Source: Acidobacteriota bacterium (GTDB taxonomy: Bacteria; Acidobacteriota; Aminicenantia; Aminicenantales; Saccharicenantaceae). From it: DNA of 64,000 bases. Location: the NCBI GenBank assembly GCA_028749205.1, contig JAQULR010000002.1, positions 59,644 to 123,643 on the forward strand, read 5' to 3'. The notes under the pieces were generated by a model. That model worked only from the letters and a program-made list of their open reading frames with translations. It searched no databases and was not told the DNA's origin. Each line of letters begins with the position of its first letter. Position 1 is the stretch's first letter. Shown here in pieces: positions 49,779 through 63,908 of this stretch. The translations under genes were made by a program, and so were the position numbers.

Positions 49779-52531
49779 CTAATAATTCAGATAAAAAGTA
49801 AGAGCAAAGGTCCTGGGTGGAGCATAGGAGGTTGGCATCATGTAGGTAGGCTGATCACCCCGAACATCAACTCTTAGGGCAGTCTGCATATCAAACAAAT
49901 TCATCATTCTGGCTTCAATCATCCCTCTAAATTTGCCCAGCGGGATTTCATAGGTAAGCTGCAAGTCGCAATTAACCCAGGTTTTTAATCGATGAGAGCC
50001 AGCTTTTTCCAGATAACGAAAATAATTCCCGTAATAATCCATACCTCGTTTTTCCCATGGAGCTCCACTCTGAACTCTTAGATAGCCACCCAGGCTGAAC
50101 CTTTTGGCAAATTCCCAGGTACCGAAGACTTTCAGGACATGGGACCTATCGCCAGACAGAAGTCCTTCCCTATTGGGATCACTCAGGTAAAGCCCTGGAG
50201 CATCCTCAATATAAGAAGAAGCATAAAAGAGCGCCGTTCCAGCCTGATAGTCGAGGTCCCAATTGCCTGCCAGACGGCTCCAGGTATAGGACAGGTTAAA
50301 AGACCAGCGATCAGCATACTGCCTTTTTAATTCAAAGGTTACCGCTTTATAAGTTCTTTTGGCTTGGCCAGCATAAAAATCAACAAAGTCTGCCTGTGGG
50401 ATGAGTGCCTGTATTTCTGGTGGCAAATTCTGCCATGACATTAACTGACCATCAAGGTTACCATAGACATAGCTGGATGGGCTGGTTTCACGGTTGCGAG
50501 TCGGGAAATCTTCAATAACATGTTTAAAATAGCGGTAGTCACCCCAGAGTTCAAAAGTCCAGTGACTATTTAACGGACGGCTATAGCCAACCACGAACTC
50601 ATCGGTATAAGTCGGTTTTAAATCAGGCAAAATAATTTTACCAGTTTCGTTGCCCTGAATGACGGTGGCCAGAATAGTTCCGTCTGCCTGAGCAATGTAA
50701 GCATCTGTTCTGTAAATTCGGATTGGAGCAGCAGCTCTGGCAATTGAGCGGTTATCCATATTGTTATAGCGCCCGAAACTGGCAAATATCTTATCTCTAG
50801 CTTTCAAGCTGGGTGTAAATGTAAAGCCTATTCTTGGCTGGATCTCTTTATCAAAATTGAAAGTCAAGAAAGTGTGCTTCTGGTCAGTTTTGCTGCTAAA
50901 CTCATCCCGGTTAGCCAGCAAGCCAAGTGTTAAGGTAAAGCGCTCGCCAATGGTGACATTATCCTGAAGAAAGAGGCCATAAGTCCGCCCGCGAGAATCC
51001 TGAGCCGGCTGCTCTGAATAATAGCGAGCTCTGAACGCATCCTGACCGCCATAGGTGGTGGTAATGATGCTGCCCCAGCCGTTGGCCAAACGATCCAGAT
51101 ATTCGCCGCCATCATCATAGCTAAAGCCGACCTTTATCACATGGGAACGACCGGTAAAATCGAGATATTTGGTCAGAACTAACTTAAATTCATCCCGGAA
51201 GAAGTTCTGGGTATTATATTCAGAAGCGGCACCCACATACTGGCCAGAAGCCGTCGCTCCACCCCCAATATAACCGGTCGCCGTTCTAAAATAACCCATA
51301 GTCCACGGCTCAAGATAATTGAATGGTTCAGGTAAATAACCCAGTTCAGTTATTGGCAAGCTGGAGTAATTTTCTTTGACATGATCATATTTTGCCTCCA
51401 GCAGGGTTGATTGATTAATTGTCCAGACCCACGAAGCATAGATGATTCTTGATAGGCCATCCCCGTTGAGGGCTACTGTTGGATGAGAATTTACTCCAAC
51501 CCCGGTATTCTTTTCAGTGTAATCGTTATTCCTAATACTTACAGCAAACAAATGGGCCCGCCAGGGATTGGCAGTAATTTTGGCGAACAATTCAGTCGAA
51601 TTAGTTTTAGCATCAGGCACAGGACCGAGGTTATTTATTCGGCCAGTAGTCTTGGAATAAGGTAAATTTGCCGAGACATACCACCAGACTTTATCTTTTA
51701 TTATCGGACCCCCCAACCCTATAGAGGGAGTATACTGATCATATTTGGTAACTAAACTCGGGTCATGACTTTTCCAGGTAAAGTCAGCAGGATGAAGGAT
51801 AAAACGGAGAGTTCCAGATACTTTATTTGAGCCCGACCTGGTGATGGCATTAGTCACCATACCAGCGGCCCGCCCGAATTCAGCGCTAATGCCTCCCCTT
51901 TTTATGTTAACTTCCTGAATATCCATTTCGGAAAAATTGGCGCCCAGATATCCATAAAAGGGATTGGTAATATTGGAGCCATCATAAAGATAGACATTAT
52001 CCTGCTTATTACCGCCTGCATTGGGAGCAAAATCGCGGTTATCAGCTACCCCTGGGGCCAGTTGAAAAAGAGAAGAATAAGAACGTCCGAGAGGTAATTT
52101 CTGGACTATCTCAGATACCCAGTTAGATGAGACTTCAGTCGACTTCAGGTCAATTACTGGGGTAGCAGCTATGACCGTAACTTCCTCGTAAATTTTTCCA
52201 ATAGGCTGCAAGACGGCATTAACATAAGTCTGACGGTCAACTGCCACCACTACTTGAGCTGTAAAATCGATCATTTCGGGATGAGTTACCACCAGGGAAT
52301 ACTGGCCGGGTGGCAGTGCTTGAAACAGGAAGCCGCCGTCTTTTCCGGTAATAAACTCCCTGCCGAGTGGCAAAGGCTTTCCAGAAATGACAACCGTAGC
52401 CCCTTCCAGAATCTGGCCATCAGCACTTTTTGCCACCCCGCGAACTGAACCTCTTTCCTGGGCCAGACCCTGAACAGAGGCCAGGAATAGAACTAACGAT
52501 ACTATAAAGATGATTTTAAGATTTTTAGGCA
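49779..52531 (-). CDS. TonB-dependent receptor-like outer membrane protein with N-terminal carboxypeptidase-regulatory-like domain
   Basis: Signal peptide, CarboxypepD_reg-like beta-sandwich (GSVRGVAKSADGQ...), plug and long beta-barrel, aromatic C-terminus; start at ATG with GGAGGG RBS (ORF track extends to 52607). Confidence 0.75.
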
Positions 52532-52592
52532 TCTTGCCCTCCTTATAGCACCATCCAATTTTGATTAAACTTCCCTTCCAGTCCTTAAAACT

Positions 52593-52619
52593 AATTATAT
52601 TTGTCATTTTTTTAAGTCA
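52593..52619 (-). promoter_or_regulatory. candidate promoter for the first TBDR gene (TTGACT-N15-TATAAT on minus strand)
   Basis: Perfect -35 and -10 hexamers but short 15-nt spacer; ~75 nt upstream of the start codon. Confidence 0.3.
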
Positions 52620-53169: not shown

Positions 53170-56100
53170 TCAGAAAGAAAACCGGAATCCAAGTCGCATT
53201 GACCAGGTCCCAAACCGTGTCGCCCACTGGCCAAAGGCCGGATGCGGGTCTCCATATTCTTGGGCCCATTGTTGATAGTTCTCAGCCAGAGTGCCGTCGA
53301 GAATTTCTTCATCATCGGCCCAAATCGAGGTTCTGTTAAGGTCAGTATTTTTGCTCTGGATAGTCTTGGTGTTGGTTACATTGTTAATCTGCAGATTTAT
53401 AGCAGCTGTATATTTACCAGCCAGTTTCAGGGCATACTCCAGAAAAATATCAGCCCAGAAAGTAAACGGCAACCGCCCAATATCGGCCCTATTTTCTGGA
53501 TAAATGTATCTGTTGTTCATACGCAGATTGGTAGTCAAGGGAAGTCCGCTACGACCGTAGGCAGTCAATCCTACTGTTAAGCCAAAGGGGAAAACATAAG
53601 AACCGTAGGCCTTGAAATAATGGGTTCGGTCATGAGGCATTGGACCTTTAAGCACATTGCCATAGACATCGTAGGCCATGAACCAATCATCATAATAAAG
53701 AGTAACATTAGGAGCGTTTCGTCCATCTTCATCTGCACTGCTTAAGCCAGAATAGTTACCTTGAACCCGACTTAAGGTATAGTTGATGCCACCCATCCAG
53801 TTATCACTGAATCTTTTTTCCAGAGACAGGTTCATACCATAGTAATCTCTCTTAGCTTTAGGGACTGGCCAATACTCATCGGCAAACTTACCCCCCTCAG
53901 AGATTGGACGGGAATACCCATAACCAGGGTTGGTAATGTAAAAAATTTCTTGAAGGGTCTCATCAACCCATTCCAGAGCTCCAACGTCTTCTATTGTCCG
54001 GATCAGATGTTTATAGACCAGCCTGGCCGACAAAGATAGGTGCTCAGTCAGTTTTTTTTCTGCCCCGAAGGACAGTTCACTCTGAGCTGCTGGTTTAAGG
54101 TCAGGGTCAATTCGGTCAAAAGAAGGTGGCAGGTAATCAAGAGTTCCAGCATAGGTATTATTATATTCCTGGCTTTCTCTGTCATCCCGCACGCCGCTTG
54201 CCCCAATCTTAGTCCAATCAGGATCTTGAAGAGCATAGAAATCTCTTTTGTGCTTCCATCCGCCAAAACTCAACACCGCTATGTAAAGCTTCATAACATC
54301 ATAGTAGATCCCATAACTGGCGAACAGCTTCAGGTTGGAATCCCCAAAGACGTCATAAACTACACCGATCCTGGGAGCAATTTTGTCAGTGAATTTGAAA
54401 TTAACAGGCTTTTTAATGTCAGCATACATCGGGTCATCGGTAAACGAGGGTATATATTCATTTTCAGCCCTGACTCCAAAATTTAAGGTCAGCCGATTTT
54501 TGATGGTCCAAGAATCCTGCAGGTAGAGGGCCCAGTTATTGCTTCTGGCATTCCAGACCCCACCGTAAGGGGCAGTCCAACCGCTACGAATATAGTAATA
54601 ACCATACTGACCATAGTATTCACTCGATGGATCTGCACCCACTCCGACGGGGAATCCAAGGGCATTGGAAGTGCGGTTCCAATATAGATAGACTCTGGGA
54701 TATGGTGAAAAATCGAGAACATCTTCATGGAGCTGGATGAATTGAACGCCAGCTTTCCAAGCATGCTCACCCATCCAGGTGAGATAATAGGTAGCATCGA
54801 GATTGGCACTGATTTTTTCATAGAGTCTTTTTTGTGTCTCCATATAGGTTCCGGAATCGGTCCAGTAGGCATAATGCAAAAGATCTGGATTTTCCTGGAA
54901 GAAAGGGTCATCTTCAAAAACATAGTTGGAAGTATAATAATAAAAGGTGGTGTGAGGAGGTGGCTGAATCCGCTGATTAGTGGTGTTCTGTCTGTGCCAG
55001 CCGGCCCGCAGACTTATGAGAAAATTATTACTCGTAGAATAATCAGCACTGAAAGAAGTGGAGTGGTCAGGATAGTCATAACCTTCTTTAAACCATTCGT
55101 AATCGTATGAAGATGTCCCGCCAATTGAGGGGATAGCTCCACGATATTTATAAAAATTATTGACGAAACTGGCTGAAAGCCGTAAGCCCTGAATTGGGGC
55201 GGCTGTAATCTTGAATGACCCGTTGTAATAAACATCCTTATTGCTGAAATGATAAAAAGGACCCTCCCTGGAATTAAAATCACGCAGAGCAATAGTTTGG
55301 CCGTAAATAGGATTAAAAGCAGCAAAGAACCAAAAACGATCCTTTAAGATGTATCCACCAAGGCTGACTGCAGCTTCCAGTCTGTAATAGTTATCTCGTT
55401 TTTTGCCCCCATCAAAATACAAGTCATCCTGATTGACATATTCATACACATCAACATCATAAGGATTTTGCCTGAGATAATCTCTGGTTTTGCCCTGCAT
55501 CCAGGTTTTGTTGTTTTCATAATAAGTAATCAAATCTCCGTGGAAGACATTACCACCGGACCTGGTAATAACATTTACCACCCCGCCCATCGAGCCGCCG
55601 AATTCAGCGTTATAGCCAGAGGCCACCACCTTAACTTCGTCTATCAATTCAAGAACAACATTTTGAGCTCTGGTTCCAACATGAATGCTGGTAACGTCAG
55701 TACCATCTACATGCCAGACATTTTCAGCACCCGAAGCTCCATCCATAGAATAACCTCCGACCTTGCTTTCATACTGAACCCCGGGGACGATGCTAATTAA
55801 AGAATCAAAACTGCGACCACGCGGCAAAGCCATGAACGTTTCTTTATTCATTACCTGCCCTTTAACCGTGGTTTTCACATCGATTAGCGGCGCCTCCCCA
55901 ATAACAGTGACTTCTTCCTCAACTGCTGCTGGCTCCAGGGTTATGTTTAAAATTAAGGTCTGAGACAGCTCAAGATATATATCCTTCCTGACTATTCTCT
56001 TAAAACCAGGAAGGCTGAAGGTTATTTCGTAAGTTCCTGATGGCAAAGCCAGAAGACGATAAACTCCGTTGCCATCAGTTACGGCCGTAGCCCTGCCGAC

Positions 56101-56262
56101 TAGCTTCGGGCTGGTGGCCTCAACATTTACTCCGGGCAGTGAATTACCCTGATCATCTACCACTCGGCCTGAGATTATGCCTTCTGGCATTATCTGACCC
56201 AGGGACAATCCGGCAGTCAGGAGTAATAAAAAAACAAAAACCAAAGGACAAATCTTTTTCAT
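53170..56262 (-). CDS. TonB-dependent receptor-like outer membrane protein with N-terminal carboxypeptidase-regulatory-like domain
   Basis: Signal peptide, CarboxypepD_reg domain (ISGRVVDDQGNSLPGVNVE), plug, barrel, terminal ...FRFSF; AAGGAGGAA RBS; 1030 aa. Confidence 0.75.
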   Translation of the reverse strand: MKKICPLVFVFLLLLTAGLSLGQIMPEGIISGRVVDDQGNSLPGVNVEATSPKLVGRATAVTDGNGVYRLLALPSGTYEITFSLPGFKRIVRKDIYLELSQTLILNITLEPAAVEEEVTVIGEAPLIDVKTTVKGQVMNKETFMALPRGRSFDSLISIVPGVQYESKVGGYSMDGASGAENVWHVDGTDVTSIHVGTRAQNVVLELIDEVKVVASGYNAEFGGSMGGVVNVITRSGGNVFHGDLITYYENNKTWMQGKTRDYLRQNPYDVDVYEYVNQDDLYFDGGKKRDNYYRLEAAVSLGGYILKDRFWFFAAFNPIYGQTIALRDFNSREGPFYHFSNKDVYYNGSFKITAAPIQGLRLSASFVNNFYKYRGAIPSIGGTSSYDYEWFKEGYDYPDHSTSFSADYSTSNNFLISLRAGWHRQNTTNQRIQPPPHTTFYYYTSNYVFEDDPFFQENPDLLHYAYWTDSGTYMETQKRLYEKISANLDATYYLTWMGEHAWKAGVQFIQLHEDVLDFSPYPRVYLYWNRTSNALGFPVGVGADPSSEYYGQYGYYYIRSGWTAPYGGVWNARSNNWALYLQDSWTIKNRLTLNFGVRAENEYIPSFTDDPMYADIKKPVNFKFTDKIAPRIGVVYDVFGDSNLKLFASYGIYYDVMKLYIAVLSFGGWKHKRDFYALQDPDWTKIGASGVRDDRESQEYNNTYAGTLDYLPPSFDRIDPDLKPAAQSELSFGAEKKLTEHLSLSARLVYKHLIRTIEDVGALEWVDETLQEIFYITNPGYGYSRPISEGGKFADEYWPVPKAKRDYYGMNLSLEKRFSDNWMGGINYTLSRVQGNYSGLSSADEDGRNAPNVTLYYDDWFMAYDVYGNVLKGPMPHDRTHYFKAYGSYVFPFGLTVGLTAYGRSGLPLTTNLRMNNRYIYPENRADIGRLPFTFWADIFLEYALKLAGKYTAAINLQINNVTNTKTIQSKNTDLNRTSIWADDEEILDGTLAENYQQWAQEYGDPHPAFGQWATRFGTWSMRLGFRFSF

Positions 56263-56858
56263 TTGCTTAGTTCCTCCTTTTTTTAGGATGCCCTCAACCT
56301 GGAGGAGTTTTAATCCTCCTGCCGATAACTTTAATTAAAACTATCTTAGCCAACAACTCATTCTTTCTCCTTTTTGCTTAGTCTCACACTTTTACCCTTT
56401 TTAGGATAAGCATATCTCTAACTATAAAAACTTGTCAAGAAAAATTATTTCTCTTTGGATCATCGCATCCACCATATAGTCGGGGCATATAAACTCCAAA
56501 AAATAAAAAACTCCCTTTCTTCGCGAGGATTGACATCTTTTGGAAAATCAAAATTTTATGGACTGAAATAAAGCCGCTAAATTAAGCTTGGTTATTCATA
56601 AATAATCCTCCAACAATCCAAGTGGGCAACAATCTGTTTCAGACGTTGTAACGAATTCTGATATTTTTAATCGTTAAAATTATCAAACTTGAAGCCCTGA
56701 CAATTTTAATCTCTGGGCAGGTTAAAAGCGAATTTTCGGCCCAAGCTAACACCGGTAAATTGCTTCTATTGTAAAAGGGAGAAGCAAGCACAGAAAGCTT
56801 ATAAAGATCTTCCTTTCATCCTGGGCAAAAATATAGAACCCCTTCCTCTCTGGGTGAA

Positions 56859-56944
56859 TGCCGGAGGAGGGAGTCGAACCCACACCCGAAATGAATCGGA
56901 CTGGATTTTGAGTCCAGCGCGTCTGCCTATTCCGCCACTCCGGC
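56859..56944 (-). tRNA. tRNA-Leu (anticodon CAA)
   Basis: 86-nt cloverleaf: acceptor GCCGGAG/CTCCGGC, anticodon stem CTGGA/TCCAG with loop CTCAAAA, long variable arm (CCGA...TCGG), TTCGACT T-loop; CCA not encoded. Confidence 0.85.
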
Positions 56945-57253
56945 AAACAAAAGGCTAATAAACTATAAATAAATCGTCAGACTTTTTCAAGATTGCCCGC
57001 AGGGGATTTAAGCAGTTAATTCTATTAGATGATCTCTTTTTAGCAAGCATCGTATTTTCAGAAAATGCCTTTTATTCTAACTCCAGCGGGGGCAGATGAC
57101 CAAGAGGCAGGGAATTGGCCTGCTTATGCCTCTACCATTGAATATAATCAGACCTGGATGCCTTCCAAAGGCCGGAGAGAGATATAATTCCTAAGGTTAA
57201 TGAATTTGCTCCCGTTCATTGCCATTATCCTCCCTCTCTGCTATATATCTGTT

Positions 57254-57868
57254 ATGCCGACTGAAAAAAGACTGAACAAGATAGTTTCGGTTCTTTCCAG
57301 GCGCCAGCCCGACCTTCGAGTGGTTCTGGAAGATGTTACCATAGCTCATAATGCCAGTGCTGTGGCCAGGACCTGTGAAGCAGTCGGAGTCCTGAATTTA
57401 CACCTTATCTCAAGAGAGCCAGAAAAGGTTGTTTTTAACGAAGCTATTTCTACCAGAGCCGAAAAATGGCTAAATCTCATTTTCCATAACACGACCGAGG
57501 AATGCTTATCGTCCTTCAAGGAAAAGGGATATAGAATAGCGGTTACCTCTCTATCCGGAAAAACTATCCCCTATACTGAAATTGATTATTGCCAGCCAAT
57601 GGCCATTGTTTTCGGGAATGAATCTATGGGAGCTTCCAAACAGGCAGTTTCTCTGGCCGATTATGCCATTCAAATACCAATGGTCGGAATGGTGCAAAGC
57701 CTGAATCTTTCAGTTTCAGTTGGAATCATACTTTATGAGGCTTTCCGGCAGCGGCGGGAAAGAGGTTTTTATTCAACCTGCCGCCTCGAATCTGAGGAAT
57801 ATGACCGGTTTCTGAAAGATTGGCTCCGCAACCTTAAATCCCGCCAGCCTTTTAATCAGAAGAAATAA
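57254..57868 (+). CDS. trmH: tRNA (guanosine-2'-O)-methyltransferase, SpoU/TrmH family
   Basis: SVLSRRQPDLRVVLEDV...HNASAVARTCEAVGV parallels the E. coli TrmH N-terminus; start by homology, but the upstream in-frame ATG at 57200 cannot be excluded. Confidence 0.75.
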   Translation: MPTEKRLNKIVSVLSRRQPDLRVVLEDVTIAHNASAVARTCEAVGVLNLHLISREPEKVVFNEAISTRAEKWLNLIFHNTTEECLSSFKEKGYRIAVTSLSGKTIPYTEIDYCQPMAIVFGNESMGASKQAVSLADYAIQIPMVGMVQSLNLSVSVGIILYEAFRQRRERGFYSTCRLESEEYDRFLKDWLRNLKSRQPFNQKK

Positions 57869-57916: not shown

Positions 57917-59593
57917 TCAGATTCTTCTCATTGAATCAAAGTAAAATAAGTTAAGGTTTCGGCCGGCTTTAGTCAGCTTTTCTGTTAACTCTTTAGTTTT
58001 TTCCCCAACCTCTGATTGAAGATTAGCCAAGGTTTCCTTATAGGCTTCCAGTTGTTGCTTATTTTTTTCCAACCATTCTTTCTGCCATTCCTTCATTTCT
58101 TGATAATAATTCCTGGCGACCTCCTTGGTTTCTTCTGTAAACTTTTCCACTCTAAGCCAGCCTCTTCTTTCTTCTTCTGCTACTTCTACTTCAACCTTCA
58201 GCTTCTTTTTATCTCTGATTATGTCCAGAGAGAGCCTTTCTCCTTTTTTCTTTTTCTGAATCAAGTCAGTTAGATCTTCTATAGTTTCTACCCGTTTTCC
58301 ATCAGCCGATACAATCACATCGCCCACCTTCAGTCCAGCTTTTTCGGCTGGACTCCCAGGATTAATTCTGGAAATCAACAGTCCCCGACCGTCAAGAACC
58401 CCAAAATACCTGGAAAGCTCTGGGTTGAGCTGCTCCAGATAAACTCCGATAAATCTGTACTGTTCAACTACATCTCCGAATTTAAATCTCTCAGCTTCAG
58501 TAAACCTGGGTAATTCTGGCATGGGGGGTAATGCCGGCATCCGGCGGAATAAATCTGGAAATCTCAATTCCAGCTCTCGTCGGGCTTCTTCTTCTGGGAC
58601 TGCCCCCAGCTTTATTTTAATGTTCTGAATCTGGCCTTGTCTTTCTATGGTCAGATTTATTGTGGTGCCTGGCTGGCGATTTCTAATTTCAGAAACTAAT
58701 TGATCAGAGGATCGGATGTCTTCACCGTCTATTTTAAGTATTATGTCGCCTATTTTTAAATTAACCAGTTCAGCCGGGCTTTTATCTTCAACAAAGGTAA
58801 TAACCACCCGGCCATCCCTGTCTTCGGCTATGGAGACACCCAGCCAACCACGTTCCACGCGACCTTTGGTCTTGATTTCCTGGAAGACATGCTTTACCAG
58901 TTCTACCGGCATTGCCATAGCCATGCCGGCGGCCGGAGCTTCAGCTTGACTCAAAACATAGCCGGCAGCAGTAGCTTCCCTGTCTCTGAAACGGAAAACT
59001 ATCGGCCTGTCTTCTAAATATACTCCACGCAACAGACCAACCAGCCGGCCCTTTTCATCAAGAATCGGTGCACCGCTCATCCCTGGCGTAACCCAGAGAT
59101 TCAGCCGCAAACGATCTTTAGCCACAGCACTCACTATTCCCTGAGTCACTGTTATCCCGGCATCAGAAGCCAAGCCAAGAGCACAAATCCAGGATCCAGG
59201 ACTCAAATCCTTAGCCGAGCCGCTACTAATAGCTGGAAGTTTTCCGCCCTTAAACTGAAGGATAGCTATCCTGGTTTCAGGATCAAAACCCAGAAAATCT
59301 GCTTGGTACTGATTACCACCACTATCTATCACCACAAGTTTCTCATCTCTGGGAGATATCAGAGCCGTAGTAGCTATATAACCTTCTTTATCTATAACTA
59401 CACCAGTAGCTACTCTTTTGAATCCGTTTCTAACTTCAACTCTGACCACCGACGGAGAGGCTTTCTTGACAACTTCAGTAGCATCACGATCAGCTGCTAA
59501 AATTGAACCCGGATTGGCCAGACCAAATAATAATGCACAGATTAATATCAGGTAAGTTAATCCTAACCTGAAAATCTTAATCTTGTCTTTCAT
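57917..59593 (-). CDS. HtrA/DegP-like trypsin-fold protein with two PDZ domains, catalytic His absent (probably non-proteolytic)
   Basis: Signal/anchor; trypsin-like domain with GMSGAP Ser motif and Asp, but no His anywhere in the ~170-aa protease domain; two PDZ-like segments; K/E-rich coiled-coil C-terminus. Confidence 0.7.
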   Translation of the reverse strand: MKDKIKIFRLGLTYLILICALLFGLANPGSILAADRDATEVVKKASPSVVRVEVRNGFKRVATGVVIDKEGYIATTALISPRDEKLVVIDSGGNQYQADFLGFDPETRIAILQFKGGKLPAISSGSAKDLSPGSWICALGLASDAGITVTQGIVSAVAKDRLRLNLWVTPGMSGAPILDEKGRLVGLLRGVYLEDRPIVFRFRDREATAAGYVLSQAEAPAAGMAMAMPVELVKHVFQEIKTKGRVERGWLGVSIAEDRDGRVVITFVEDKSPAELVNLKIGDIILKIDGEDIRSSDQLVSEIRNRQPGTTINLTIERQGQIQNIKIKLGAVPEEEARRELELRFPDLFRRMPALPPMPELPRFTEAERFKFGDVVEQYRFIGVYLEQLNPELSRYFGVLDGRGLLISRINPGSPAEKAGLKVGDVIVSADGKRVETIEDLTDLIQKKKKGERLSLDIIRDKKKLKVEVEVAEEERRGWLRVEKFTEETKEVARNYYQEMKEWQKEWLEKNKQQLEAYKETLANLQSEVGEKTKELTEKLTKAGRNLNLFYFDSMRRI

Positions 59594-59604: not shown

Positions 59605-59979
59605 TCAGTATCTAACCTGTTGGACCCAATTATCAGATACCTGCTCCAGGATAAAAACTGTCTGAATTTCATCATTTGACCGGCGCATTTCCTGTCTTAA
59701 GTCTAAGGGCTCAACCAGATGAATCGCCTGGTCTTGAGAAGCCTCTTGAGCCATTTCAATCAAGGAGGACTCTTCCAGAGAACTCGGCTTTCTGGCAGAA
59801 GGAGAAAAAATTATTAACCCGATAATAATCAAAGTTGTCGCTCCTGCTAAACTGAATTCTAATTTCCGCAGCTTTACTCTCTTTTCTCTATTCCTCTTTA
59901 ATCTGGTCAGAACCGACTGTTCAAAGTCTGGCGGGGCTACGACTTGATTGAGCTGGCTGAGATATTTTTGGTCATCCAT
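59605..59979 (-). CDS. putative single-pass anti-sigma factor
   Basis: 124 aa, one TM helix (LAGATTLIIIGLIIF), immediately downstream of an ECF sigma gene. Confidence 0.45.
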   Translation of the reverse strand: MDDQKYLSQLNQVVAPPDFEQSVLTRLKRNREKRVKLRKLEFSLAGATTLIIIGLIIFSPSARKPSSLEESSLIEMAQEASQDQAIHLVEPLDLRQEMRRSNDEIQTVFILEQVSDNWVQQVRY

Positions 59980-59992
59980 CTAAGCTCTCCAC

Positions 59993-60601
59993 TTAATATA
60001 AGTCAAGTTTTTCCTCTTCCGTTTCATTTTCAGTTCCCTTACCTCGATTTTTTATCTGTTTTCCCTCCTCGAGCCTGAGTCTTAGATATTCTCTTCCTCG
60101 GCTAATTCTGGCCTTGACAGTTCCAACCGGCAATTTCAACAGCTCAGCTATCTCTTCCTGAGAAAAGCCTTCTACATCTTTCAGGATAACCGGAATCCGG
60201 TATCGGACATGAAGCTTACTTAGAGCTATCCTGATATTTCGCATCAGGCCCGGGTCGACACCGTCCTTAGAATAGCTGCCAGAGGCATATTCGTTGTTTA
60301 TTTCTTCCAAGGGAACTGTGGCTCTCCTTCTAATTTTTTTCTTCTCAGTCTTAGCTAAATTAGCAGCTATGGAATATATCCAGGCAGAAACCGGAGCAAT
60401 TGGCCGGTATTTTTTGGCCTTGAAATAAACCCGGCAAAAAGTCTCCTGAGCCAGGTCAATTGCTACTTGGTAATCGCCTGTTGCTTGATAAAGAAAATTG
60501 ACTATCCGGTCTTTATATAAGGTCATAAGCTGGCAGAAGGCGGCTTCATCCCCTCTTTGTACTTTCTCCATGAGTGCCTGCTCATCCATCTTCTTATCCA
60601 T
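59993..60601 (-). CDS. RNA polymerase ECF-type sigma-70 factor
   Basis: Sigma70 region 2 and region 4 (ILKDVEGFSQEEIAELLKLPVGTVKARISRG); start uncertain (ORF open to 60691). Confidence 0.8.
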   Translation of the reverse strand: MDKKMDEQALMEKVQRGDEAAFCQLMTLYKDRIVNFLYQATGDYQVAIDLAQETFCRVYFKAKKYRPIAPVSAWIYSIAANLAKTEKKKIRRRATVPLEEINNEYASGSYSKDGVDPGLMRNIRIALSKLHVRYRIPVILKDVEGFSQEEIAELLKLPVGTVKARISRGREYLRLRLEEGKQIKNRGKGTENETEEEKLDLY

Positions 60602-60728
60602 TAACCACCTGCATTGAATAAAGTTGCATCTTGACAGTACTCCCTTAATAATATAGCTAACCTTATGGATGTCAAAGCCCGGAACCGGCAACCAGTTGGA
60701 GGCCCGTTGTCTATATCAAGAAGCTTAA

Positions 60729-60771: not shown

Positions 60772-61326
60772 GTGGAAATACAAGAAATCATAAAAAATTG
60801 CCTCCAGGGAGAAAATGGAGCCTGGAAAATGTTAGTTGACCTTTACTCGAAAAAGATATTTAACCTGGCCTACCAGTTCTCTAGTAGCCCTCAGGAGGCA
60901 GAAGACCTGACTCAGGAGATATTTTTGAAGCTTTACCAGGTCCTGGATAAATATGATTTTGAACGCGATTTTACTGCCTGGTTTCTAACACTGGCCAGAA
61001 ACTATCTGATCGATGAAATCCGAAGAACTAGAAAAGAGAGGTCAAATCGGGCTGATTTTGAAGAAGCAGTCTTGATTGCTGCTGAATCCGACAGTCCGGA
61101 AATTAAATATTTAGGTCAGGAAAAAGGCCAACTGATCAGGTTGGCTTTACAGCAACTTTCTCCTGAATTAAGAATAGTCCTGGTTTTAAGGGAACTTGAA
61201 GGTTTCAGCTATGAAGAAATTGCTTCCCAGTTAAAACTTCCCCTTGGAACAGTCAAAAGCCGAGTTAACAGGGGGAAAATTCAAATTGCTCAGGCTATCC
61301 TGGAAAAAGCCGGAGGCCAATTATGA
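60772..61326 (+). CDS. RNA polymerase ECF-type sigma-70 factor (GTG start)
   Basis: Region 2 (DLTQEIFLKLYQVL..FTAWFLTLARN) and region 4 (LRELEGFSYEEIASQLKLPLGTVKSRVNRG); 4-nt overlap with anti-sigma gene. Confidence 0.85.
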   Translation: MEIQEIIKNCLQGENGAWKMLVDLYSKKIFNLAYQFSSSPQEAEDLTQEIFLKLYQVLDKYDFERDFTAWFLTLARNYLIDEIRRTRKERSNRADFEEAVLIAAESDSPEIKYLGQEKGQLIRLALQQLSPELRIVLVLRELEGFSYEEIASQLKLPLGTVKSRVNRGKIQIAQAILEKAGGQL

Positions 61327-61856
61327 AGTGCCAGGAAGCACGTTTTCTTTTTACCTCTTATCTTGAGGGCAGCCTGAAATCCAAGAAAAAAAATGAGCTC
61401 GAAGCCCATCTGGCTCATTGTTCTGAATGTTCCAAACTCTTGGGAATGGTTGATAATCTCTCTCAGGAATTAAGAAACCTGCCAGATCTGGAGCCATCAT
61501 CTACACTCATTAATCAACTCTACCTGATCCCACAGAAAGCCTCCGCCCGGCAAAAAATCTTTGAAAAAAAGAAGCTTTTTAGCTGGAAATTCTGGCTCAT
61601 CCCAGCCTTTCAACCTGTCTTAGCTTCGCTGACTGTGGTTTTAATCGGTTTATCGCTAATATTTTTCACCTCTCCCGGGAAAAGCTTCAGAAAAACTGTA
61701 AATCTCGAGCTCCACCGCACCTACAGCTTAGCTCAGAAAACTCTGGTTAAGGTTGGAATCCTCAAGGACAAAATTGATGGTTACCGTGAAAACTTTATAG
61801 CTTCTTTTGAGGCTAAAAATCTTTATAAATCCGAAAACCATAAAGCGGAGGATTAA
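61323..61856 (+). CDS. anti-sigma factor with zf-HC2 zinc finger and one TM helix
   Basis: HLAHCSECSKLL motif near N-terminus, single TM (LASLTVVLIGLSLIFF). Confidence 0.7.
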   Translation: MKCQEARFLFTSYLEGSLKSKKKNELEAHLAHCSECSKLLGMVDNLSQELRNLPDLEPSSTLINQLYLIPQKASARQKIFEKKKLFSWKFWLIPAFQPVLASLTVVLIGLSLIFFTSPGKSFRKTVNLELHRTYSLAQKTLVKVGILKDKIDGYRENFIASFEAKNLYKSENHKAED

Positions 61857-61857
61857 A

Positions 61858-62361
61858 TTGGAAGAAAAAATCAAAATTGAAAAAAAACCGGCCAAGTCAC
61901 CCGTTCTAGCAGGGATATTTTCTGCGATCTTCCCGGGAACCGGGGCTATTTATAATGGAAACTACCTTAAAGGTATTTTATTTATCATTATTTTTGCTGG
62001 CCTGGTATCTATTCAGGGCCGAGGTGGCCAACCGTTTGTCGCTATCCTTCTGGCAGGATTCTATTTTTTTCAGATCATAGATGCTGTAAATGAAGCCAAT
62101 AAAATTTCGGCTATCAGTCAAGCCGGAACTAACACCAAGACTTCAACCTCATTGGAAGTTGAGGCTGAAATATCTCAACCTGCTGGTTCAATCTCGTGGG
62201 GAATAATCCTCATTCTTTTGGGTGGCTTATTCCTGCTGGCTAATTTTGAGGTCATTAATTATGACGATTTAATCAGATACTGGCCTCTGATTCTTGTTGG
62301 TCTAGGCTTAAAGTTGCTGGCGGATTATTATTCTGGCAAAAAATTTAGCAAAAAATCTTGA
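61858..62361 (+). CDS. small membrane protein: TM2-like N-terminal motif plus LiaF/DUF5668-like TM hairpin
   Basis: TTG start with GGAGGA RBS right after the anti-sigma stop (the ORF-track ATG at 61807 would overlap 50 nt); SAIFPGTGAIYNG...KGILF motif; C-terminal WGIILILLGGLFLLAN...WPLILVGLG repeated in next ORF. Confidence 0.5.
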   Translation: MEEKIKIEKKPAKSPVLAGIFSAIFPGTGAIYNGNYLKGILFIIIFAGLVSIQGRGGQPFVAILLAGFYFFQIIDAVNEANKISAISQAGTNTKTSTSLEVEAEISQPAGSISWGIILILLGGLFLLANFEVINYDDLIRYWPLILVGLGLKLLADYYSGKKFSKKS

Positions 62362-62371
62362 GGAGGAAAGA

Positions 62372-62623
62372 ATGTCCAAAAAACATAGAGAGAATCTCAT
62401 CTGGGGTATTGTTCTAGTAGTTTTAGGTGGAATTTTCTTGCTGGAAAATATAGGAATTCCTGCCTGGCGATTTATTTGGAGACTCTGGCCTCTGATCCTG
62501 ATTTTTTGGGGAGCTTCCAAACTTTACTACGGACTTAAGGCTAATAAAAACCAGCCAGAAAAGAAAGAATCAAGCATAACTCAGGCAGAAGTGGTAGACG
62601 AGGATAGAAAAGATGAGGCCTAA
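62372..62623 (+). CDS. small membrane protein with LiaF/DUF5668-like TM hairpin
   Basis: WGIVLVVLGGIFLLEN...WPLILIFWG, paralogous to the C-terminus of the preceding ORF; GGAGG RBS. Confidence 0.5.
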   Translation: MSKKHRENLIWGIVLVVLGGIFLLENIGIPAWRFIWRLWPLILIFWGASKLYYGLKANKNQPEKKESSITQAEVVDEDRKDEA

Positions 62624-63908
62624 GGAAATTGTTTTACTCCTTCTTATCATCCTAATAGGAGTCAGTTTTTATTATCTGGAAGACCTGAGAGTCAGAGTTG
62701 AGGACTGGGATATTGATTTCCCTTTTGAGGGAAGCTCCTTTATTTTTGAAGAACAGATAACCGAACAGCCGGTCCCAATCTTAGAAATTATCAACAGCCA
62801 TGGCAGTGTTCAAGTTGAAGGAACCGACAGCTCGGAAATAATAATTATCTTAGAAAAAAAAGTCTGGCAAAAAAATGAAGGCCAGGCCAGAGAAATTGCT
62901 GAGGAAATAAAGCTCCTAAAAACCAGAGAAGCTGACCGGCTGGTTATAACCACTAATCAGGAAAGCTTCAAAAAAAAGAGATTCACTACCAGTTTCAGGG
63001 TTAGACTACCAAAAGAAACTGCAATCCAGGTTAAAAATTCCTTTGGGCCAGTTCGTATATCTGGTGTCGAGAGAGTAAATCTCAACAACCCTCACGGGCA
63101 GGTTGATCTTCTGGAAATCTCAGGCCCGGCCAAGGTGGTTAACTCTTTTGAGAAGTTGTCGTTAATTGATATTGGTGGAGAATGCCAGGTAGAAACTAAA
63201 CATTCCTCAGCTATTCTTAGTCGGATCGATGGAGCCGTCAAGATAGATTGTTCTCATGAAGATTTAGAGCTTTTCGACCTGAAAAGCTCTTTAAGCTTGA
63301 ATTCTCAACATACCAGAATCAAAGCTGCCAGGATTGCTGGTCCGTCTGAGATTGTAAGTAGCTATGAACTAATCACTCTGAATCAGTCTGGACCAGCGGT
63401 TATAAAAAGCCACCATTGCCCTGTGGAAATTGTAGAATTAGAAGGTGACTTGGAGCTCAAAACCACTTATGAAAGAATAAGACTCGAAAAAATAAAAGGG
63501 AATCTGAAAATAGAGGGTAAGAGTTCTAGAATTGAATTAGACGGCTTGGAAGCTGAAAAGATTCAGATTGATAACTCTTATGAGCCAGTTAAACTCGAGA
63601 ACTTTAGGGGTCAACTCGATCTGCGTCAGAAGCATGCTGACATTATTTTAAGCCCGGTCAGCCTTGATTTCCCAATAACTGTCACCAATGAATACGGAGA
63701 TACCGATTTTTATTGGCCTAAAAATCAGATTGCCAATCTGGAAGCCGAGACTAAGGGCGGAGAAATACACTGGGAACTTCCTTTTTCTCCCGATCAAAAC
63801 TTCACTAATAGTAAGGCCATGGTTAAAGTTTTTACTGGAGCTGAAAACCGACCAAAAATCAGACTGATAACCACTTATGGTCATATCCGTTTTCTGAACA
63901 AAGAATAG
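62613..63908 (+). CDS. DUF4097-like (putative adhesin / LiaF C-terminal-type beta-helix) membrane-anchored protein
   Basis: N-terminal TM anchor, then many short repeated beta-strand units (VxIxxxxGxVxxE-like) typical of DUF4097; 11-nt overlap with the upstream gene. Confidence 0.5.
   Translation: MRPKEIVLLLLIILIGVSFYYLEDLRVRVEDWDIDFPFEGSSFIFEEQITEQPVPILEIINSHGSVQVEGTDSSEIIIILEKKVWQKNEGQAREIAEEIKLLKTREADRLVITTNQESFKKKRFTTSFRVRLPKETAIQVKNSFGPVRISGVERVNLNNPHGQVDLLEISGPAKVVNSFEKLSLIDIGGECQVETKHSSAILSRIDGAVKIDCSHEDLELFDLKSSLSLNSQHTRIKAARIAGPSEIVSSYELITLNQSGPAVIKSHHCPVEIVELEGDLELKTTYERIRLEKIKGNLKIEGKSSRIELDGLEAEKIQIDNSYEPVKLENFRGQLDLRQKHADIILSPVSLDFPITVTNEYGDTDFYWPKNQIANLEAETKGGEIHWELPFSPDQNFTNSKAMVKVFTGAENRPKIRLITTYGHIRFLNKE

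Follow-up and report, generated by a model that had tools for sequence, protein, structure and literature searches.

What an HtrA-family protein can contribute to the operon of a sigma factor of the extracytoplasmic function (ECF) type once its catalytic residues are lost is the question raised by a locus on contig JAQULR010000002.1 of an uncultured Acidobacteriota bacterium from the class Aminicenantia, analysed here within a stretch of 64,000 nucleotides (nt) that we call the window. On its minus strand a gene for an ECF sigma factor, a gene for a small single-pass membrane protein and a gene for an HtrA-like protein follow one another. HtrA proteases together with ECF sigma/anti-sigma pairs make up the textbook system for envelope stress. 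To our knowledge, the HtrA partner of such a pair acts by cutting in all cases studied. The HtrA-like protein described here has neither the histidine nor the aspartate of the Ser-His-Asp triad, and we put forward, as a proposal with about an even chance of being right, that the three genes form a self-regulated envelope-signalling module in which this predicted pseudoprotease binds rather than cuts, acting as a sensor or shield for the anti-sigma factor.

Catalytic residues and architecture of the HtrA-like protein

Foldseek comparison with solved structures assigned the HtrA-like protein to the DegP/DegQ fold (top matches DegQ, DegP and H. pylori HtrA, E ~1e-30), with the MucD crystal structure 8k2y among the best structural matches and template modelling (TM) scores of ~0.7–0.79 for the protease–PDZ1 part of the model against MucD, DegS, AlgW and M. 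tuberculosis PepD; phmmer comparison with solved HtrAs gave E-values down to 1e-34. Pfam bore out the trypsin-fold domain and the two PDZ domains of the initial annotation of this DNA, placing Trypsin_2 at residues 62–187 (E 3.9e-20) and the PDZ domains at residues ~250–329 (a PDZ_2 domain) and 407–460. The AlphaFold2 (AF2) model, based on a 96-sequence alignment, had a mean predicted local distance difference test score (pLDDT) of 74; confidence was high for the two PDZ domains and the core of the protease part (10-residue blocks at pLDDT 70–93, and 70–92 for the trypsin-fold core) and low for the inter-PDZ linker. The model is of a monomer, HtrA/DegP proteins being built as trimer-based oligomers. 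Curated family models did not claim the protein, which scored 217 bits against the Do/DegP model TIGR02037 (cut-off 416) and 163 bits against the DegS model TIGR02038 (cut-off 423).

The initial annotation had described a protease domain that contains no histidine, keeps the catalytic Asp and the serine motif GMSGAP, and cannot form a Ser-His-Asp triad. Histidine is indeed absent from the domain, the single His of the whole protein being H235, beyond its end, and GMSGAP is present with S173. The Asp that was seen is, however, not the catalytic one: it is D104, the conserved non-catalytic Asp of a D-x-x-[ST]-D motif, four residues upstream of the catalytic Asp column, which is occupied by R108. 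In phmmer alignments the histidine of TNNH lies opposite a TTA-L segment of the HtrA-like protein, and the S-D-L-A-V of H. pylori HtrA and S-D-V-A-V of a DegP-like chain lie opposite its T-R-I-A-I. An exhaustive search of 1.84 billion cluster representatives (the representative search) supplied canonical HtrAs for hmmalign, which placed His at L78, Asp at R108 and Ser at S173 without gaps. With L78 in the His column and R108 in the Asp column, the triad has lost two residues rather than one, and the conclusion that none can form stands. The protein has the trypsin fold and at least one PDZ domain, as HtrA/DegP proteins (MEROPS S1C) do, and lacks their His-Asp-Ser triad; it is thus a non-peptidase homologue, which in enzymatic terms falls outside S1C.

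Conservation of these positions was followed in 120 database clusters of orthologues, made up of an identical public protein (P0001, from an Acidobacteriota metagenome-assembled genome, MAG) and 119 others at 45–71% identity; all named members are Aminicenantes or Candidatus Saccharicenans. The TTAL[IV]SP columns are close to fixed, with T75, A77, L78 and P81 in all 120, T76 in 119 and S80 in 117. Position 108 is never D, being R in 52 orthologues, Q in 34, H in 25, N in 5, G in 2 and Y in 1; the 25 with His in this former catalytic-Asp column leave slight room for unusual chemistry in that subset. No His occurs anywhere in the protease domain of 49 orthologues, and the others have one to three at non-triad positions. 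Within the oxyanion-hole motif G-x-S-G-x-P, G171, G174 and P176 are invariant and S173 is retained in 117 of the 120; the remaining three have Ala instead, and are full-length with all other family motifs kept, including an RRV C-terminus. Judged by these three, the nucleophilic Ser is dispensable in some orthologues. The triad-less state is invariant or near-invariant across the 120 database orthologues and ~40 genome loci, more than chance would give, and the loss of the triad is ancient, selected and under purifying selection.

A scan of one genome per species returned 39 Aminicenantia loci at 41–65% identity to the HtrA-like protein, below which identity fell sharply to ≤28%, the level of ordinary HtrAs of other phyla. 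Some loci with an Aminicenantia-type trio at 45–53% identity (L011, L019, L020, L021, L023, L025, L030, L032, L038 and L040) come from MAG records titled 'uncultured Eubacteriales' or 'Terriglobales', labels that are probably wrong. In the MAG loci L034, L037, L038 and L040 the HtrA-like gene is split into two open reading frames (ORFs); the split most likely reflects a frameshift introduced by assembly or sequencing, though the genes could be truly disrupted.

Further out, the representative search found full-length relatives at 26–35% identity (500–590 amino acids) that have the same architecture, neither His nor Asp, and a Ser column free to hold A, P, M, T, V or I. Since these relatives are likewise triad-less, catalysis was lost before the Aminicenantia clade arose and the loss was then maintained, the mark of a pseudoenzyme whose function is under selection. 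This distant family includes P0133, P0134, P0136, P0139, P0144, ~40 more representatives and the loci L084 and L088 (26–32% identity); its members carry a long L2-loop insertion of the form GFxxxPDYxFKDH...LCYAxP and Lys/Glu-rich tails, and where annotated are called 'serine protease Do'. HtrA-like lineages that are degenerate in other ways came from the same search, with P0181 (Polarisedimenticolia), P0202, P0219, P0221, P0234 and P0267 on the one hand and P0166 (Planctomycetota), P0180, P0227 and P0237 on the other; one group lacks His, Asp and Ser (e.g. TPGAGGGP) and another has PGSFGG. Triad loss among PDZ-bearing trypsin-2 proteins seems to have occurred repeatedly.

Taken one by one, neither PDZ domain of the HtrA-like protein aligns to PDZ2 of DegP; both align best to DegP PDZ1 (residues ~265–355) and to the single PDZ of DegS/AlgW. 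PDZ1 aligns with the PDZ1 region of DegP and MucD and with the PDZ of AlgW. G249, W250 and G252 of its carboxylate-binding loop are invariant, as is R248 in a 24-sequence set, and L299, E302, I303 and R304 of alpha-B are at least 90% conserved. PDZ2, 35% identical to PDZ1, has its best solved matches in residues 265–355 of DegP, again PDZ1 (E = 1e-18), and in the DegS PDZ; its G383, G424, D425 and L441 are invariant. The carboxylate-binding loop and the alpha-B helix are conserved in each of the two. On these alignments both domains are of the peptide-binding DegP-PDZ1/DegS type.

Around these domains the protein carries several features of its own. The hydrophobic N-terminus, which has no lipobox, is predicted to be a Sec signal that is cleaved or an anchor that is retained. 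A family-specific insertion of ~22 residues at the position of the L2 loop does not occur in canonical HtrAs and has an altered form in the distant triad-less relatives; Y192, P197, F200 and F202 are invariant in it, and R203, E206, G209 and G211 are conserved in at least 90%. The Lys/Glu-rich, coiled-coil-like C-terminus noticed at the outset was borne out, with 45% K/E/R/Q over the final 83 residues and two long AF2 helices at 487–510 and 512–547 (pLDDT ~62–73); its sequence varies, yet the extension is kept across the clade and in the distant relatives. The last residue of the protein is I or V in 95 of the 120 orthologues, most often as RRI, RRV, KRI, RKI or RKV, and in 10 it is C after a hydrophobic residue. 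No paralogue of the HtrA-like protein was found within the window.

The sigma factor operon and its small membrane protein

The order ECF sigma factor, small membrane protein, HtrA-like protein on one strand, which the initial annotation had read from this locus, proved to be conserved class-wide: it is present in all Aminicenantia loci with enough flanking sequence (~40), and the same trio occurs in the two nearest outgroups, at 34–35% identity. In the window the sigma and small-protein genes are 13 nt apart and the small-protein and HtrA-like genes 11 nt; across the loci the junctions overlap or measure 10–15 nt, the sigma and small genes often overlapping. The small-protein gene has its own GGAG Shine–Dalgarno sequence, and the GAGGAGG of the HtrA-like gene overlaps the small-protein stop codon.

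An unbiased k-mer search of 40 regions upstream of the sigma gene recovered a two-part motif at a fixed offset. TGCAAC occurs in 32 of the 40 regions; once aligned, all 40 have [TC]G[CAT]AAC-N16-18-GTT[TAC] at this offset with a spacer of varying sequence, and the strict pattern TGCAAC-N16-18-GTT(T/A)A is found at that spot in 34 of 39 loci. The copy upstream of the sigma gene is the sole match in the window, where 0.16 matches are expected (background in unrelated loci, 0.33 per 10 kb). ECF sigma operons typically have an auto-regulated promoter with an 'AAC' -35 element and a short -10 element; the motif looks like one of these and may be recognised by this sigma factor. A scan across the loci found no copy before the HtrA-like gene. 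Packed tightly and conserved as a unit, the three genes lie behind a single ECF-type promoter-like motif, and co-transcription of the trio is predicted. The classic GGAAC...CGT ECF promoter was also sought upstream of the sigma gene and was not found. Extra copies of the motif were looked for as regulon markers; there were none in the window and few across the loci, near the background rate and none of them recurring.

The sigma factor was identified by Pfam (Sigma70_r2, 5e-11; Sigma70_r4_2, 7e-15) and by the NCBIfam sigma70-ECF model TIGR02937 (70.7 bits, cut-off 42.9). It consists of sigma-2 and sigma-4 regions only, over ~200 amino acids, as do ECF group 4 factors, and its orthologues are 54–80% identical and occupy the same position in all loci. 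Although the mechanically called ORF reaches a TTG at 60691, the conserved start ATG-GAT-GAG at 60589 together with the fixed offset of the promoter-like motif makes 60589 the likely start, giving a protein of 198 amino acids. No clear Shine–Dalgarno sequence is present at this start, with GTTAA ending ~12 nt before the ATG, and both downstream genes have strong ones; the sigma mRNA may have a very short leader or none.

The product of the middle gene had been called an anti-sigma factor in the initial annotation. It is a single-pass protein encoded directly downstream of the sigma gene, and to that extent the description holds; it does not belong to a recognisable anti-sigma family, as neither the protein nor 27 members of its family have a Pfam or NCBIfam match, and all 28 database orthologues are annotated 'hypothetical protein'. 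An orthologue of 108–149 amino acids lies between the sigma and HtrA-like genes in every locus. Alignment of 41 loci showed a common layout, in which a cytoplasmic N-terminus of ~39 residues and a basic stretch are followed by one transmembrane helix, a variable linker of 20–50 residues and a conserved C-terminal module. A15, P16, F19 and V23 of the cytoplasmic motif, which the outgroup loci L085 and L086 share, are invariant or at least 90% conserved. When the family profile was compared with solved structures, the best match was the anti-sigma-W factor RsiW (5wuq_C, residues 49–78) at a marginal E = 0.055; here RsiW 49–78 (...VEAPADFTANVMAKLPKEKK), which is its helix 4/pre-membrane segment, is aligned to VxAPPxFExxVLxxL and the basic stretch before the membrane helix. 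AF2 modelled the small protein alone as a continuous helix from residue 19 to 58 (pLDDT 82–89) with a disordered linker, and the basic residues ahead of the membrane helix imply, by the positive-inside rule, an N-in, C-out topology. Position downstream of a sigma gene and a predicted single-pass N-in topology are shared with class I anti-sigma factors (ASD, zf-HC2 or RsrA/RseA type); a profile-detectable anti-sigma domain is not. We regard it as a candidate minimal anti-sigma factor and tether.

The C-terminal module has the consensus P[IV]xExxDYxxExR...T[IV][YF]ILEQVS[DE]x5[IV]x[YF]-COOH, with L111 and E112 invariant. Its last residue is Y or F, with I, V or L at position -2, in 41 of 41 loci, and 27 of the 28 database orthologues end in [IV]-x-Y, the exception lying on a 1-kb contig. 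The tail is a conserved, free hydrophobic-x-aromatic C-terminus, as recognised by HtrA-type PDZ domains, and has the same form as the C-termini of two outer-membrane protein (OMP) beta-barrels encoded in the window (F-S-F and L-N-Y).

A proposed binding role for the pseudoprotease and its alternatives

Under the proposed module, the short cytoplasmic N-terminus of the small protein would sequester the sigma factor, and the pseudoprotease would hold the small protein's periplasmic tail, which is attached through a flexible linker. The final [IV]-x-[YF]-COOH would sit in a PDZ groove and the conserved YILEQVS strand could lie in the preserved, inert substrate cleft with its retained oxyanion-hole glycines. 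Such holding would keep a true site-1 or site-2 protease away from the anti-sigma factor, as RseB does for RseA. Accumulating unassembled OMPs, with ends such as ...RFSF and ...YLNY, would compete for the PDZ domains; the tail would then be released and the anti-sigma factor degraded, freeing the sigma factor to induce the operon from its own promoter. In E. coli the DegS PDZ binds the YxF C-termini of unassembled OMPs, leading to RseA cleavage; RseB shields RseA until it is displaced, and RseP and ClpXP complete the degradation (PMC8103513). The initial annotation had envisaged a protease converted to a PDZ-based sensor or scaffold; of this, a binding role is favoured by the tail motif and the type of the PDZ domains, while the function as sensor or scaffold is a matter of sequence logic. 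The [RK][RK][IV]-COOH end of the HtrA-like protein, alongside its two PDZ1-type domains, might speculatively offer a second, internal ligand, in cis or between subunits. If the binding model is true, HtrA/PDZ scaffolds would be able to give up catalysis and serve anti-sigma factors as receptors or shields, many entries now titled 'serine protease Do' or 'PDZ domain-containing protein' would gain a function and the right annotation, and a very short type of anti-sigma factor overlooked by current profiles would be defined.

A more specific version, which we consider possible but on balance doubtful, is a counterpart of DegS that works without proteolysis, sensing having been split from cutting. 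The anti-sigma tail would here be a built-in mimic of the OMP beta-signal and the second PDZ domain may bind the protein's own tail as an auto-ligand or oligomerisation latch; OMP ends would displace both, and a generic protease would then cut. Such ligand exchange, if true, would represent a new coupling of OMP folding to an ECF sigma factor and provide a first function for the widespread triad-less HtrA family.

Several observations weigh against a binding role in sigma control. The small protein has no significant likeness to any anti-sigma domain (best E = 0.055), and its ~39 cytoplasmic residues fall short of the class I anti-sigma domain, a four-helix structure of ~70–90 residues. With the small protein modelled alone, its C-terminal module has a pLDDT of ~50 and the helical call there is untrustworthy; this is compatible with ordering on binding and proves nothing. 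The L2 insertion, despite its strong conservation, has a pLDDT of ~33 in the AF2 monomer (residues 191–220), and may become ordered only in an oligomer or on binding a ligand. When 31 pairs of tail and HtrA-like protein were compared for covariation, the signal only mirrored the division of the Saccharicenans subclade from all others. Near-perfect retention of S173 and of the oxyanion-hole glycines in most orthologues demands an explanation, for which substrate-like binding is a speculative candidate. Finally, two relatives at 28–30% identity whose surroundings were checked have no adjoining sigma gene, one lying after a gene for a Tricorn protease and the other after a radical-SAM gene.

These sigma-less relatives suggest that a non-catalytic task of the fold, such as that of a holdase, may be independent of sigma regulation, and it is conceivable, if rather unlikely, that the HtrA-like protein is output only: a periplasmic holdase or chaperone induced by stress through the sigma factor and exerting no control over it, with the small-protein tail serving, for example, as a degron read by a real protease. 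The existence of triad-less relatives of the same architecture away from sigma genes means that the function can stand alone, and a preserved substrate cleft with two peptide-binding PDZ domains would suit a client-binding chaperone. Protease-dead DegP keeps its chaperone activity. In addition, regulons of the sigma-E type classically include htrA genes (PMC8103513). A mere output does not readily account for the strict adjacency of the gene downstream of the small-protein gene in every Aminicenantia genome and two outgroups, nor for its lack of a separate promoter motif, and an invariant PDZ-ligand-like C-terminus on the adjoining gene product would be an odd coincidence. Even if the protein were a holdase only, it would be a clean natural case of HtrA chaperone activity parted from protease activity.

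Much less probable, in our view, is that S173 still works with a non-canonical base, drawn from the L2 insertion or from position 108, as a dedicated, PDZ-activated site-1 protease in the manner of DegS and AlgW. Such an enzyme would explain why S173 persists in 117 of 120 orthologues within an invariant G-x-S-G-x-P motif, unlike MamO, in which Gly193 is lost, and would fit the operon logic of DegS/RseA and AlgW/MucA. The conserved Q-V-S of the small-protein tail also recalls the site-1 cut in RseA, which falls between Val and Ser. It is hard to reconcile, however, with an invariant Leu in the His column, an Asp column that is never acidic, the absence of any other conserved His in the domain (49 orthologues have none at all), three otherwise intact natural S173A orthologues and a Ser column that is free to vary in the distant relatives; no Ser-only or Ser-Arg mechanism is known to us from any protein of the chymotrypsin fold.

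A decaying pseudogene, or a sequencing or assembly artefact behind the missing His, has the missing triad as its only support and is refuted by the intact 558-amino-acid frame, the identical public protein P0001, confidently folded domains in the AF2 model, and the same triad-less motifs with many invariant columns in 120 orthologue clusters and ~40 loci; the frameshift and the recent pseudogenising change that the initial annotation had named as possible objections both fail, as the frame is intact in the orthologues and none has an intact triad.

Surroundings of the operon and comparison with known systems

Coordinates of the operon, of the features within its products and of the neighbouring genes are collected in Table 1.

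Table 1. Operon features and neighbouring genes, with positions in the window
Feature	Position	Strand	Basis or remark
CarboxypepD_reg + OMP beta-barrel proteins (TonB-dependent-receptor-like), tandem	49779–52607, 53170–56262	-	end ...YLNY, ...RFSF
Mechanical ORF	56746–56946	-	spurious, overlaps tRNA-Leu
tRNA-Leu (CAA)	56858–56945	-	
SpoU-family RNA methyltransferase gene	57200–57868	+	convergent to HtrA-like gene, downstream
HtrA-like pseudoprotease gene, 558 amino acids	57917–59593	-	ATG-to-stop ORF, Pfam domains, Foldseek
Own C-terminus of HtrA-like protein, residues 555–558, M-R-R-I-COOH	57920–57931	-	conserved; consensus [RK][RK][IV]-COOH
Lys/Glu-rich helical, coiled-coil-like C-terminal extension, residues 476–548	57950–58168	-	AF2, composition
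PDZ domain 2, residues 378–475, loop R-F-I382-G383-V	58169–58462	-	Pfam
PDZ domain 1, residues 243–335, carboxylate-binding loop R248-G-W-L-G252	58589–58867	-	Pfam PDZ_2
Trypsin-fold domain without triad, residues 40–232	58898–59476	-	L78 59360–59362, R108 59270–59272, S173 59075–59077
Family-specific insertion at L2-loop position, residues 191–222	58928–59023	-	ExxPxVFxFRDRExxGxGYVxSxAEAP
Predicted signal peptide or membrane anchor, residues 1–34	59492–59593	-	modelled hydrophobic helix 2–24, hydrophobicity conserved in alignment
Small single-pass membrane protein, 124 amino acids	59605–59979	-	candidate minimal anti-sigma factor and tether
Predicted periplasmic C-terminal module of small protein, residues 87–124	59608–59721	-	terminal V-R-Y at 59608–59616
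Transmembrane helix of small protein, ~residues 40–60	59800–59862	-	sequence, AF2
Predicted cytoplasmic motif V-x-A-P-P-x-F-E-x-x-V-[LM]-x-x-L, residues 12–27, then basic stretch	59899–59946	-	alignment
ECF (group 4) sigma factor gene, 198 amino acids	59993–60589	-	Pfam, TIGR02937, conserved start
ECF-type promoter-like motif TGCAAC-N17-GTTAA	60601–60628	-	ends ~12 nt before sigma ATG
Second ECF module, divergent	60772–63908	+	
Second module, sigma factor gene	60772–61326	+	Pfam
Second module, zf-HC2 anti-sigma factor gene	61323–61856	+	Pfam
Second module, LiaI/LiaF-TM protein genes	61807–62361, 62372–62623	+	
Second module, DUF4097 'toastrack' protein gene	62613–63908	+	

The convergent arrangement with the SpoU-family gene is kept in essentially every orthologous locus, including that on the 4-Mb contig L003, with no obvious functional link. 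The divergent second sigma gene is found in about half of the orthologous loci and the full five-gene module only in the close relatives L001 and L002; because of this partial occurrence we place it outside the conserved trio.

No paper returned by a literature search connects an HtrA lacking the triad with an ECF sigma operon or deals with the Aminicenantes case, and the main text of the ECF re-classification paper has no mention of PDZ, trypsin or HtrA. What appears new here is a class-wide HtrA-derived putative pseudoenzyme in an ECF operon, paired with an undescribed minimal anti-sigma-like protein, and the dedicated PDZ-ligand-like tail that the latter seems to carry.

HtrA homologues are encoded in the sigma/anti-sigma clusters algU-mucABCD of P. 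aeruginosa (MucD) and sigE-rseA-htrA of M. tuberculosis (Rv1223), and in this respect the Aminicenantia operon is of a familiar kind. MucD and Rv1223, however, have intact triads and act by degrading as far as is known, which the HtrA-like protein cannot do, and mucB and mucC lie between the anti-sigma gene and mucD. The trio recalls CnrH/CnrY/CnrX of Cupriavidus metallidurans, in which an ECF sigma factor is joined by a very short class II anti-sigma factor with a single membrane pass and by a distinct sensor in the periplasm; this sensor, CnrX, is a small helical metal sensor that contacts the periplasmic end of the anti-sigma factor. CnrX contains no HtrA or PDZ domain, and no likeness between the small protein and CnrY was detected, no comparison having been aimed at it. 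RsiW of Bacillus subtilis differs in having a full zinc-binding anti-sigma domain of ~80 residues, to the last helix of which alone the small protein would correspond.

As an HtrA/trypsin-2 pseudoprotease whose degenerate triad is retained for non-catalytic functions, MamO/LimO of magnetotactic bacteria is the characterised bacterial parallel. The non-catalytic roles of MamO include control of a partner's proteolysis; it has kept His and Asp, has Thr for Ser, has lost Gly193, carries a bulky Trp in L1, binds metal through two His at its surface and is fused to a TauE transporter (PMC4794232). The HtrA-like protein shows the reverse pattern, having lost His and Asp and kept Ser and both oxyanion glycines (G171, which corresponds to Gly193, and G174, both invariant); it has no di-His site or other metal-binding His, and goes together with a sigma factor and a small membrane protein. 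With a different pattern of degeneration, architecture and partners, it has an origin independent of MamO.

In the principle proposed here, by which the module would work as a hybrid of DegS and RseB, the counterpart is RseB/MucB, a periplasmic protein encoded by a neighbouring gene that binds the periplasmic part of the anti-sigma factor and prevents site-1 cleavage for as long as no stress ligand displaces it (PMC8103513). RseB is not of the trypsin/PDZ fold, however, and is displaced by lipopolysaccharide intermediates rather than C-terminal peptides. DegS/RseA/sigma-E of E. coli and AlgW/MucA/AlgU of Pseudomonas share with the Aminicenantia trio a membrane-associated HtrA-family protein whose PDZ reads hydrophobic-x-aromatic ends and controls a single-pass anti-sigma factor, a role that is predicted for the HtrA-like protein; its PDZ domains align to those of DegS and AlgW and its protease and PDZ1 superimpose on theirs (TM score ~0.7–0.77). 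DegS and AlgW have an active Ser-His-Asp triad and one PDZ domain and are encoded outside the sigma operon, whereas in the HtrA-like protein the triad is gone and two PDZ1-type domains and a coiled coil are present; and the PDZ-ligand-like end, unlike that of the DegS system, lies on the anti-sigma-like protein itself and not on OMPs alone.

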